Source of the DNA: Candidatus Omnitrophota bacterium
GTDB taxonomy: Bacteria; Omnitrophota; Omnitrophia; Omnitrophales; Aquincolibacteriaceae
Direction of reading: 5' to 3'
Length of the DNA stretch: 64,000 nt
Assembly (NCBI GenBank): GCA_903856085.1
Contig: CAIOAT010000004.1
Span: 20,722-84,721, forward strand
A program made the translations under genes and the position numbers. Positions 23,450 through 27,276 of the stretch are shown piece by piece (within the stretch, counting starts at the first letter, position 1; the number at the start of each line of letters is the position of its first letter). The notes below the pieces were generated by a model. The model did not search any database and had not been told where the DNA came from. It saw only the letters and a program-made list of their open reading frames with translations.

Positions 23450-25078
23450 TTACTCGATGCTGCCCGAGTAGTTCGAGGATTTTTTCTTATCCTCTTCTTT
23501 TTTCTCTTTGGGTTTATCCGCGATCACGCACTCGGTGGTGAGAATGAGGCCCGCGATACTGCAGGCGTTCTCCACCGCGATACGGACGACCTTGGCCGGG
23601 TCAATGACCTTGGCCTTAACAAGGTCCTCAAATTCGCAGGTCAGCGCGTTGAATCCGAAGTCCCCTTTGTTTTCAAGGATCTTCTTCACGACGACTGATC
23701 CGTCGGCCCCGGCATTGTGGGCGATCTTACGGGCCGGTTCCTGTAGCGCCCGGCGAACGATCTGAACGCCTGTGGCTTCATCGCCCGACGCTTTAACGTC
23801 ATCAAGCGATGCGATGGAGCGCAGAAGTGCCACGCCGCCGCCTGGGACGATGCCTTCGTCGATGGCCGCGCGGGTTGCATGAAGCGCGTCCTCGATGCGG
23901 GCTTTCATTTCTTTCATTTCCACTTCCGTTGCTGCGCCGACCTTCACAACGGCCACGCCGCCGGAAAGTTTCGCAAGTCGTTCCTGGAGCTTTTCTTTAT
24001 CGTAATCCGAGTCCGACCGTTCGATCTCGGCTTTGATCTGATCACAACGGGACTTGATATCTTTCTGGGTTCCCGCGCTTCCCACGATCGTGGTGTTATC
24101 CTTATCGATCACCACGCGCTGGGCTGTGCCGAGCATTTCGAGGTCGACATTTTCGAGTTTTACGCCGAGATCTTCTGAAATGAACTTGCCCTTGGTGATG
24201 ATCGCAATATCTTCCATCAAGGCTTTGCGCCGGTCCCCGAATCCGGGAGCCTTTACGGCTGCGATCTGGAGCACGCCGCGGATCTTGTTGACCACGAGTG
24301 TCGCAAGAGCTTCGCCTTCAATGTCTTCCGAGATGATGAGCAGGGGCTTGCCGAGGCGCGCCACTTTCTCAAGCACTGGGACGAGGTCCTTTACGGCACT
24401 GACTTTTTTCTCGTAAAGAAGGATGTAAGGTTCTTTCAAGACCACTTCCATCCGCTCAGCGTCGGTCACAAAATAAGGCGACAAGTAGCCGCGGTCGAAT
24501 TGCATCCCCTCAACCACGTCCAGTTCGGTCTTGAGACCTTTCGCTTCTTCGACCGTGATCACGCCTTCTTTGCCGACCTTTTCTAGAGCATCCGCCAGAA
24601 GCTGACCGATCGATTGGTCGTTATTGGCGCTGATGGCGCCGACGGCCGTGATGTCCTCTTTGCCTTTGACGGCCTTGGACATTTTCTTGATCGTGTCGAC
24701 GATCTTCGCGGAGGCTCTATCAATACCGCGCTTCAAGGCCATAGGATTGGCACCGGCGGTGACGTTCTTTAAACCCTCGGAAACGATAGCCTGAGCCAGG
24801 ACCGTCGCGGTCGTGGTTCCGTCTCCAGCGTTATCCGAAGTCTTTTCCGCGACTTCCCGGACCATTTGGGCGCCCATATTCTCATACGGGTCCTTCAGGT
24901 CGATCTCTTTGGCGACCGTGACACCGTCTTTGGTCACAAGGGGTGCGCCGAATTTCTTATCGATCACAACATTGCGGCCGCGGGGACCGAGCGTGACGCT
25001 GACAGCCCTTGCGAGGATGTCGACGCCGCGTTTGATCCGCTGGCGCGCTTCTTCCGAGTAGGAAATCAATTTTGCCAT
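23450..25078 (-). CDS. groEL: chaperonin GroEL paralogue (distal copy; lacks the GGM tail and ends in a Lys/Glu-rich tail)
   Basis: Full-length Cpn60: [17 protein letters not shown], etc. C-terminus is [21 protein letters not shown] instead of GGM repeats. Confidence 0.9.
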
Positions 25079-25082
25079 GGGG

Positions 25083-25376
25083 TTACTCCTTCTCGTAAAC
25101 GGCGAGAATTTCGCTCTCTTTGACGATCTTGTGCTTGACGCCGTCGATCATGAGATCGTCGCCGGAATATTTTCCAAACAGCACGCGATCGCCTTTTTTA
25201 ACTTCAATGGCCTGGATCTTGCCGGATTCGAGCACTTTGCCCGCGCCGACTGCGATGACCTTGCCCTCAGTCTTTTCTTCTTTTGCGGTGTCCGGGAGGA
25301 TGATGCCGCCCTTGGTTTTTGCTTCCGCTTCAAGAACTTCTACCAGCACTCGGTCTGCTAACGGTCTGACTTTCAT
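25083..25376 (-). CDS. groES: co-chaperonin GroES
   Basis: 97-aa Cpn10 ([12 protein letters not shown], mobile loop, GDRVLFGKY). 4-nt gap to the downstream groEL. Confidence 0.9.
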
Positions 25377-25424
25377 TTTATTTCTCCTTCGTTAATTTTT
25401 GACGTTTAGTTTAATTTCGAATCT

Positions 25425-27092
25425 TTAGTAATCCATCCCGCCCATGCCACCCATTCCGCCCATACCTCCCATGCCCCCCATACCGCCGCCACCCGGCATC
25501 GGCGGCATCTTCTCTTCTTCAGGAAGGTCCGTGATTAGAGCCTCGGTGGTGAGAAGGAGGCCGGAAACGCTGGCCGCATTCTGGAGCGCGCTGCGGGTGA
25601 CTTTTTTCGGATCGATGACTCCGGCTTCGACCAAATTTTCGAACTCACCGGTCTCAGCGTTGTACCCGATATTACCTTTTTCGGACATGACGCGTTGGAC
25701 CACGACAGAACCCTCATCCCCGGCGTTAAAGGCCAGTTGACGGAGAGGTTCTTCAATGGCACGCCGGACGATTTCGGCGCCGATTTTTTCATCGCCCTTG
25801 AGTTTCAGGCTGTCGAGCGCACTGCCGGCGCGTAAGAGGGCTACGCCGCCGCCCGGGACAATGCCTTCTTCCACGGCCGCGCGGGTTGCATGAAGCGCAT
25901 CTTCCACGCGTGCTTTCTTTTCTTTCATTTCGGTTTCGGTCGCGGCACCGACATGAATGACCGCCACGCCGCCCGCGAGCTTCGCGAGACGTTCTTGAAG
26001 CTTTTCTTTGTCGTAATCGGAATCCGTATCTTCGATCTGTTTCTTGATCTGGCCGATACGGCTGGTGATATCCGTGCTCTTACCAGCGCCTTCAATGATC
26101 GTAGATTTTTCTTTGTCCACGGTCACGCGTTTTGCACGACCGAGGTCTTTTAAGGTCACGTTCTCAAGCTTGATCCCGAGGTCTTCGGTGATGGCCTTGC
26201 CGCCGGTGAGGATGGCGATATCTTCCAGCATGGCCTTGCGCCGGTCTCCATATCCCGGGGCCTTGACCGCGCAAACGGTGAGCGTACCGCGGATCTTATT
26301 GACCACGAGGGTTGCGAGCGCTTCGCCGTCCACTTCCTCGGCAATAATGAGGAGAGGTTTCCCGGCCTTGGACGCGGCTTCGAGGATCGGGAGCATGTCC
26401 TTAACGGAGGAGATCTTCTTTTCATTGATGAGGATGAACGGTTCATCAAGCACGACTTCCATGCGCTCGGTGTCCGTCACGAAATACGGGGAAAGATACC
26501 CCTGGTCGAACTGCATGCCTTCGACCACATCCAGCGTCGTGGCCGTGGTTTTGGCTTCTTCAACCGTGATGACGCCGTCTTTGCCGACTTTTTCCATGGC
26601 TTCGGCGATATGATCACCGATCGTGGTGTCGGAGTTCGCGGCGATGGAGGCGATCTGAGCGATCTCTTTTTTATCCTTGCCGATGGGTTTTGCGACTTTA
26701 TCGAGTTCGGCCACGATGGCTTCCACGGCTTTATCGATGCCGCGTTTGAGGGCCATCGGGTTTGCTCCGGCCGTGACGTTTTTTAGGCCTTCGCGATAAA
26801 TCGCCTGCGCGAGAATAGTCGCGGTCGTGGTTCCGTCGCCGGCCACATCAGAAGTCTTGGAAGCGACTTCCTTGACCATCTGGGCGCCCATGTTCTCATA
26901 AGGGTCTTCGAGCTCGATCTCCTTGGCGACCGAAACACCGTCCTTGGTGACGGTCGGGGATCCGAATTTCTTTTCAAGGACCACGTTGCGGCCTTTGGGA
27001 CCGAGGGTAACCTTGACTGCATTTGCGAGCTGATCCACGCCATGCAGGATCGCGCGGCGCGCCTCTTCACTGAACAGAAGTTGTTTTGCCAT
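25425..27092 (-). CDS. groEL: chaperonin GroEL (proximal copy, canonical C-terminal GGM repeats)
   Basis: 555-aa Cpn60 ending [24 protein letters not shown]. About 70 percent identical to the distal copy by eye. Confidence 0.9.
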
Positions 27093-27144
27093 GTTGATTC
27101 TCCTTATTGTTGATTAGGTGTTTCGAATGAAATGCGTTGCGGTT

Positions 27145-27171
27145 CTGGCACTCAGCAATTTTGAGTGCCAG
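27145..27171. promoter_or_regulatory. CIRCE-like HrcA operator (CTGGCACTC-N9-GAGTGCCAG)
   Basis: 9-bp inverted repeat with a 9-nt spacer. The GCACTC/GAGTGC cores match the CIRCE consensus TTAGCACTC-N9-GAGTGCTAA. Located in the leader of the first groEL. Confidence 0.6.
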
Positions 27172-27276
27172 GTGAGGCGCTATTGTATTCGGCGGGCTCA
27201 AAAAATCAAGAGGAATTTCTTAAAACAATTTTGAAGCAAGGAATAAGGTATACGGCAGGAGCGTAATTCCTTCGTG

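Follow-up and report, generated by a model that had tools for sequence, protein, structure and literature searches.

Extra copies of groEL are common in bacteria and are usually explained by differing regulation of copies placed at separate loci. Where a genome has a single groEL, groES always lies upstream of it; where it has several, each groEL comes after a groES or stands by itself (PMC5406781). Here we describe a 64,000-nucleotide stretch of Candidatus Omnitrophota DNA (assembly GCA_903856085.1, contig CAIOAT010000004.1, positions 20,722 to 84,721; hereafter the window, whose own numbering we use) in which groEL1, groES and groEL2 lie head to tail as three intact open reading frames (ORFs) on the minus strand behind a single operator-like inverted repeat. 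Our preferred reading, which we hold with moderate confidence, is that these genes form one heat-shock-type, co-transcribed dual chaperonin unit, conserved across a large Candidatus Omnitrophota clade, with GroEL1 as the housekeeping and GroEL2 as the accessory chaperonin. A literature search of incomplete coverage returned no paper on a groEL-groES-groEL operon or on Omnitrophota chaperonins, and the gene order and shared operator appear to be new as a clade-wide variant of a well-known system, unusual but stable.

The canonical groESL operon under HrcA and the controlling inverted repeat of chaperone expression (CIRCE), as in Bacillus subtilis and many phyla, shares with the window a sigma-70 promoter followed by CIRCE in the leader, GroES and a Gly-Gly-Met (GGM)-tailed GroEL encoded together, and an intrinsic terminator at the operon end; the groES-groEL2 pair even retains the usual order and tight spacing. 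Unlike that operon, the window places a full housekeeping groEL between operator and groES and a second groEL after groES. Mycobacterial groEL genes are regulated by CIRCE, as is presumed here, and the GroEL paralogues of actinobacteria and myxobacteria are unlinked and separately regulated. Mycobacterium tuberculosis, with groES-groEL1 (cpn60.1, His-rich tail) and an unlinked groEL2 (cpn60.2, GGM tail), likewise has two paralogues, of which the GGM copy is the more conserved while the other, with an unusual charged tail, has the higher evolutionary rate (PMC11978752). There, however, it is the atypical copy that adjoins groES, the GGM copy lying elsewhere under separate regulation, whereas the Omnitrophota genes share one operon, and the atypical tail is His-rich rather than the Lys/Glu polyampholyte of Omnitrophota GroEL2. 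Myxococcus xanthus, with groES-groEL1 and a stand-alone groEL2, also has one groES for two functionally diverged GroELs, whose divergence involves the C-terminal and apical regions (PMC5406781; PMC3578752), and its single GroES serves both (PMC5406781). Its groEL genes are unlinked and differentially transcribed from separate loci, under the control of a dedicated orphan response regulator (PMC9040617), whereas the Omnitrophota copies share promoter and operator. A first-pass annotation, made from the sequence of the window, had suggested a specialised client set for the second GroEL by analogy with actinobacterial or myxobacterial duplicates. That analogy captures the more conserved GGM copy and the faster non-GGM copy and breaks down on location: the separate loci and separate regulation of dispersed duplicates are absent here, and one unit with one CIRCE was found in all nine related lineages described below.

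The operon runs from groEL1 (25425..27092; 555 amino acids) through groES (25083..25376; 97 amino acids) to groEL2 (23450..25078; 542 amino acids), with coaX, birA, alr and tsaB as the upstream neighbours of groEL1 on the same strand. groEL1 is preceded by the promoter and CIRCE region and coaX, not by groES, and only groEL2 comes directly after groES. The first-pass annotation had proposed this groEL-groES-groEL order on the minus strand, two full-length GroELs about 70% identical, a GGM tail on the promoter-proximal copy and a lone CIRCE-like dyad upstream of it, and all four descriptions proved accurate: over 520 amino acids the proteins have 68% identity and 84% similarity, and GroEL1 ends in GGM repeats (residues 523-555; 25428..25526). 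It had also called the distal copy tail-less with a Lys/Glu-rich end; the Lys/Glu-rich end is real, and the term tail-less is wrong, since GroEL2 has a 21-residue tail of other composition (23453..23515), a Lys/Glu polyampholyte that closes with Y-S-G-S-I-E. Identical DNA in the two copies, which the annotation gave as grounds for suspecting an assembly duplication, was not found: the genes are 66% identical, third codon positions agree at 45%, near saturation, and the longest common exact word is 24 nt, so the pair is neither an assembly duplication nor the product of recent gene conversion. The phylogeny it called for separates the proteins into two distinct clades, GroEL2, on a long stem, at 99% bootstrap support and GroEL1 at 79%.

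On the operon strand, a scan limited to sigma-70 consensus sites found one promoter-like site within 23200..27400, TTGATT (-35), 16 nt and TACAAT (-10) at 27182..27209. The CIRCE-type inverted repeat (27145..27171, minus strand), presumably an HrcA operator, begins 11 nt past TACAAT in the groEL1 5' leader, between the -10 box and the start codon, and folds as a 10-bp hairpin. It is a perfect CTGGCACTC-N9-GAGTGCCAG dyad with a perfect GCACTC-N9-GAGTGC core, and is the only CIRCE-like dyad in the 64 kb, against a chance expectation of 0.01 matches from shuffles. Seven of the nine positions in each arm agree with the Bacillus consensus TTAGCACTC-N9-GAGTGCTAA, the mismatches being two symmetric positions per arm; the strict consensus, allowed up to three mismatches, has no match in the window. 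Between the genes, the sigma-70 and dyad scans of the window found neither a second promoter-like site nor a second CIRCE, and hence none of the separate promoter and CIRCE ahead of groES that the annotation had regarded as fatal to its proposal. The groEL1-groES spacer (48 nt) is A/T-rich and unstructured, and the unstructured spacer from the groES stop codon to the groEL2 ATG measures 4 nt, which suggests translational coupling. All three genes have the Shine-Dalgarno sequence AAGGAG, 7 nt ahead of the ATG for groEL1, 8 nt ahead for groES and embedded in the groES 3' end for groEL2. Downstream of groEL2, on the same strand, lies an intrinsic terminator (23393..23432), the sole strong one, whose 18-bp stem has a GC-rich core of 11 pairs and is followed by a U-run (-28.8 kcal/mol, z = -6.0; none of 200 shuffles folds as well). 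Rfam returned no known RNA element above gathering score anywhere in the window, leader and spacers included, and tblastn across the window found no groES beyond the operon copy.

The arrangement recurs among relatives, and the nearest genome locus and every named homologue belong to Candidatus Omnitrophota. Of the 80 best-matching loci from other species, taken as one genome per species, 79 are canonical groES-groEL from many phyla, two other Omnitrophota (L012 and L022) among them, and one, from Omnitrophota (L001), is groEL-groES-groEL. Searching further through divergent GroEL2-type (76-84% identity) and GroEL1-type (79-83%) proteins, we found groEL1-groES-groEL2 in nine relatives in all (L001, L081/L082, L083, L084, L086, L088, L089 and L090), or eight distinct loci once L082, a duplicate of L081, is set aside; L085 is cut at its 5' end. 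Assemblies with the operon include GCA_029553765.1, GCA_049324575.1, GCA_016179745.1, GCA_964434115.1 and GCA_043813055.1. The genes tsaB-alr-birA-coaX lie directly upstream in eight of the nine, L088 being the exception. Longest contigs of matching size are also listed for at least 26 more pairings of a GroEL1-type with a GroEL2-type cluster, and some of these contigs span only 3.8-4.5 kb, so that both genes must be adjacent there. A protein identical to window GroEL2 is present on at least 20 contigs; of the four occurrences shown, from different samples, two contigs carry the whole operon and two start inside it. Each complete three-gene locus has one CIRCE, about 50-190 nt upstream of groEL1, whose GCACTC-N9-GAGTGC core is perfect in seven of the eight distinct loci and in the two-gene locus L087, and has one mismatch in L090; no CIRCE precedes groES or groEL2 in any of the nine. 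When ten upstream regions are aligned, the -35 box, the -10 box and the dyad stand out as conserved islands amid diverged sequence, and in most of them TTGAttt and TAnAAT boxes align with the -35 and -10 boxes of the window.

CIRCE lies ahead of groES in L012 and L019. The layout of L019, which reads coaX, TTGACA-N17-TATAAT, consensus CIRCE, groES and groEL, with a GroEL of GroEL1 type, indicates that the canonical operon is likely the ancestral state of this locus and that a groEL between operator and groES is likely derived. L087 (GCA_001804205.1; 6001-8661) keeps CIRCE-groEL1-groES and the downstream guaB-guaA synteny and lacks groEL2, whose place is taken by an unrelated ORF of 156 amino acids whose N-terminus resembles a signal peptide and whose body resembles a coiled coil. 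By this synteny it is a secondary loss of groEL2, which implies that GroEL1 can suffice alone. The converse, GroEL2 without GroEL1, has zero cases among the loci examined. In the deep-branching L090, groES (7730-8024) is frameshifted near codon 10 and was left uncalled by the gene caller, through either a sequencing indel or a real pseudogene.

Both GroELs look functional. On the TIGR02348 GroEL equivalog model (cutoff 582.1 bits) GroEL1 scores 864.9 and GroEL2 851.1 bits, and both align end to end with solved GroEL structures. We counted conservation over 130 GroEL1-type and 127 GroEL2-type sequences, using E. coli GroEL numbering verified as identical to PDB 4pkn. Residues of the ATP/Mg site (T30-P33, K51, D52, D87-T91 (GDGTTT), D398, G415, G416 and D495) are 97-100% conserved in both clades. 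At the apical substrate- and GroES-binding surface, Y199, S201, Y203, F204, L237, L259, V263 and V264 are kept in both paralogues, the sole exception being L234, which GroEL2 replaces conservatively by V or I. Both clades also retain the inter-ring residues R452, S463 and V464, with position 461 being E in GroEL1 and D in GroEL2. Across all checked ATP/Mg, GroES-binding and inter-ring residues, conservation is 92-100% in both clades, and the differences in GroEL2 come to L234V/I, E461D, N467K and A126K. Catalytic residues are intact in both GroELs, which may assemble as tetradecamers and fold clients in a GroES- and ATP-dependent manner.

The two paralogues have evolved unequally. GroEL2 is the more diverged in all 36 pairs of genomes that carry both, with an overall ratio of 1.5, and the within-genome identity of GroEL1 and GroEL2 is 66-72% everywhere, which indicates an absence of concerted evolution. 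When sampling is balanced, 6-9 fixed substitutions, rare elsewhere, are unique to GroEL2 and none is unique to GroEL1; an initial count of 14 versus 1 was inflated by many near-identical GroEL2 sequences and was discarded. Q146A, Q184K, E216K, V300F and V346C appear in GroEL2 in every sampling, the first of these replacing a glutamine that is otherwise 99% conserved. An enrichment of GroEL2-specific sites in the apical domain (8 of 14) was also considered and is not significant, because that domain is generally more variable. Codon usage follows the same asymmetry: the effective number of codons is 39.0 for groEL1, 42.1 for groES and 46.6 for groEL2, against 45 to 61 for 15 other genes of the window. 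The bias of groEL1 is the strongest measured there and suggests that the two proteins are made in unequal amounts, with GroEL1 as the major species.

A Gly-Met-rich C-terminal tail is typical of GroEL, if not strictly defining, and paralogues without GGM are known (PMC11978752). GroEL1 has such a tail and GroEL2 does not: GGM repeats occur in 130 of 130 GroEL1-type tails, whereas the median GroEL2 tail, over 127 orthologues, contains 7 K+R, 5 D+E and 1 G+M. A terminal motif of the form Y[SAP]G[SNM][IV]x (the Y-S-G-S-I-E type) closes 101 of the 127; deeper GroEL2 branches retain the Lys/Glu stretch and lack the motif. A GGM-like tail occurs in one GroEL2 orthologue of the 127, likely a chimera. 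Two anomalous proteins, P0069 (a GroEL2-like body of 87% identity with a GGM-like tail, on a 2.9 kb contig) and P0001 (a 741-amino-acid GroEL2-like protein on a 3.1 kb contig), are probably assembly chimeras of the two paralogues, natural recombinants being the alternative. The GGM paralogue has been reported as always retained and as the more conserved copy (PMC11978752), a rule that, on the sequences compared here, holds for this operon. A specialised role for the non-GGM copy fits its faster evolution, its paralogue-specific fixed substitutions and its conserved atypical tail.

The shared GroES has changed as well. The window protein scores 118.7 bits on NF001531 (cutoff 96) and has the hydrophobic IIL tripeptide in its mobile loop. 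The flank of that loop (residues ~30-37) reads AKEEKTEG, whereas 77 GroES of other taxa have the near-universal form AKEKPxxG; the change from KEKP to KEEK, with loss of the proline, is present in 10 of 10 GroES of the three-gene clade, and it is one of about seven clade-specific states that are rare or absent among the 77.

The source of GroEL2 can be narrowed in part. GroEL1 has Q197, Y281 and A151, as do single-copy Omnitrophota GroELs, whereas GroEL2 has the general bacterial R197, F281 and S151; in E. coli GroEL, R197 pairs with E386 in a salt bridge between subunits. That GroEL2 stems from a recent groEL1 duplication appears unlikely, since the two come out as sisters in only 2-3 of 60 bootstrap replicates and GroEL2 lacks Q197, Y281 and A151. 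The position of GroEL2 in the tree has 25-42% bootstrap support (neighbour-joining, Kimura or gamma distances), and rare states divide on the question: the very rare D357 and E79, common to GroEL2 and Omnitrophota proteins, link it to the phylum, while the three sites above set it apart. We mildly favour a duplication that occurred long ago inside the phylum, with later losses from its other lineages. Acquisition of a foreign groES-groEL unit is possible, although the operon GroES has rare states in common with other Omnitrophota GroES. By one simple route, the present order may have passed through a tandem groES-groEL-groES-groEL stage that then lost its first groES.

In the model we propose, an HrcA-type repressor would bind the CIRCE dyad, overlapping the transcript start, and relief of repression would yield groEL1, groES and groEL2 from one mRNA; such HrcA control is probable given the dyad. 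GroEL1 would be the vertically inherited housekeeping chaperonin, in keeping with its GGM tail, slow evolution and strong codon bias, and GroEL2 an old, faster-evolving and catalytically intact paralogue that would act as an accessory, co-expressed cage. On the cavity floor of GroEL2 a Lys/Glu polyampholyte would replace the hydrophobic GGM repeats, accompanied by a small number of fixed substitutions in its apical and intermediate domains. The operon's one GroES, itself with clade-specific changes, would serve both GroELs, which we assume form mostly separate homo-oligomers. Throughout a large uncultured clade, two diverged GroELs have remained together in a single operon that has one operator and one GroES. 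Under such shared control, any division of labour would have to lie in the proteins themselves, in clients or cavity chemistry rather than in timing. The conserved Lys/Glu tail offers a natural experiment on the role of the GGM cavity floor, the placement of a housekeeping groEL ahead of groES shows that the near-universal groES-first order is not obligatory, and the operon is small and clonable.

Several observations weigh against this single-unit model. No hrcA occurs among the window ORFs of 300-456 amino acids that were scanned, and an hrcA motif scan of the window and all loci gave no match, which is a weak negative. Strong hairpins, of which the window has none, lie between operon genes in some relatives: directly after groEL1, L088 has a GC-rich hairpin followed by TTTTAATTTT (7648-7734), resembling an intrinsic terminator, and L081 has a strong hairpin without a T-run (5506-5588). 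In those lineages the hairpins may grade or split expression, so that groES-groEL2 may be attenuated in L088 and L081. Finally, co-expression from one mRNA would suit mixed oligomers equally well.

Mixed oligomers are the main alternative, one that we regard as possible but doubtful. The two GroELs would then assemble together, either inside one ring or ring by ring, around a GroES that co-evolved with them, with a cavity floor that mixes GGM and Lys/Glu tails, and the operon would exist so that one heat-shock-controlled mRNA supplies GroES and the two subunits at a constant ratio. Tight linkage under one regulator across the clade, the opposite of the usual dispersed and differentially regulated duplicates, speaks for this reading; the identical Shine-Dalgarno sequences, the largely common subunit-interface and inter-ring residues, and the failure to find GroEL2 without GroEL1 agree with it too. 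Against it, GroEL1 lacks any fixed change of its own when compared with single-copy Omnitrophota GroELs and hence gives no sign of partner adaptation. L087 lives on GroEL1 alone, GroEL2 has D rather than E at inter-ring position 461 and K rather than Q at 467, and the weaker codon bias of groEL2 suggests unequal rather than fixed amounts. Mixed rings, if they do form, would give bacteria an equivalent of chloroplast Cpn60 alpha/beta, in which two co-expressed, diverged type I subunits share co-chaperonins and which could then serve as a model. Cpn60 alpha/beta is hetero-oligomeric, whereas GroEL1-type proteins clearly function by themselves in the related genomes L012, L019, L022 and L087.

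We consider it unlikely that the locus comprises two units, with groEL1 alone under CIRCE and groES-groEL2 expressed from an unrecognised internal promoter or by attenuated read-through, and thus regulated differently. The groES-groEL2 pair does resemble a canonical groESL pair, with spacings of 4-27 nt in several loci, the L088 and L081 hairpins lie immediately behind groEL1, and our promoter scan saw only sigma-70 consensus sites. In the window, however, the unstructured groEL1-groES spacer contains no promoter-like site, and a CIRCE of its own before groES was found in none of the three-gene loci. The spacer hairpins vary among relatives, and some of them are repeat insertions, not conserved signals. 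Among the spacer structures are palindromes with arms GTCATTGCGAG...CTCGCAATGAC and minimum free energies of -42 to -62 kcal/mol (L001 6398-6534 and 6826-7000; L088 8023-8156; L089 7630-7738). They look like a small repeat family of the repetitive extragenic palindrome (REP) or miniature inverted-repeat transposable element (MITE) kind and are missing from the window spacers.

It is more doubtful still, indeed quite improbable, that GroEL2 has ceased to be a GroES-dependent folding cage and has taken another role, such as holdase or cell-surface protein, as proposed for some atypical paralogues. The GGM tail that GroEL2 lacks has been reported as important for encapsulation (PMC11978752), and the faster evolution of GroEL2 and its alanine at Q146 could be read in the same way. 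Such a change of role is hard to reconcile with the 92-100% conservation of ATP/Mg, GroES-binding and inter-ring residues across 127 orthologues, or with the position of groEL2 directly behind groES at a spacing suggestive of translational coupling. Chlamydial GroEL2/GroEL3, in a relative of the Planctomycetes-Verrucomicrobia-Chlamydiae (PVC) group, are likewise extra GroEL paralogues without a GGM tail; unlike them, window GroEL2 keeps all catalytic residues, and its 851 bits on the standard GroEL model far exceed its 216 and 267 bits on the chlamydial models NF038370 and NF038369 (cutoff 600). An assembly artefact or a pseudogene copy is excluded: two short operon-carrying contigs do begin inside the operon, as assemblers do at paralogous sequence, but the copies share only 66% DNA identity with saturated third positions, both groEL ORFs are intact, the arrangement recurs in independent assemblies from nine divergent lineages, and the window version itself recurs in other samples.

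Some neighbouring features deserve mention. A stand-alone receiver-domain protein of 121 amino acids without an output domain is encoded at 22874..23239 on the plus strand, reading towards the groEL2 terminator; L083 has a similar gene close to the operon, beside two HSP20 genes, and none is present near the other loci. Elsewhere in the window, an ORF with a two-partner secretion (TPS) domain (44639..45589) precedes and overlaps a 2309-amino-acid ORF (45412..52341), and a second giant ORF of 1710 amino acids occupies 8574..13706. Two genes for predicted permeases of the ArsP_1 family (37494..38594 and 57255..58214) lie about 20 kb apart, and the second of them adjoins an SBF-family transporter gene (55758..56804).

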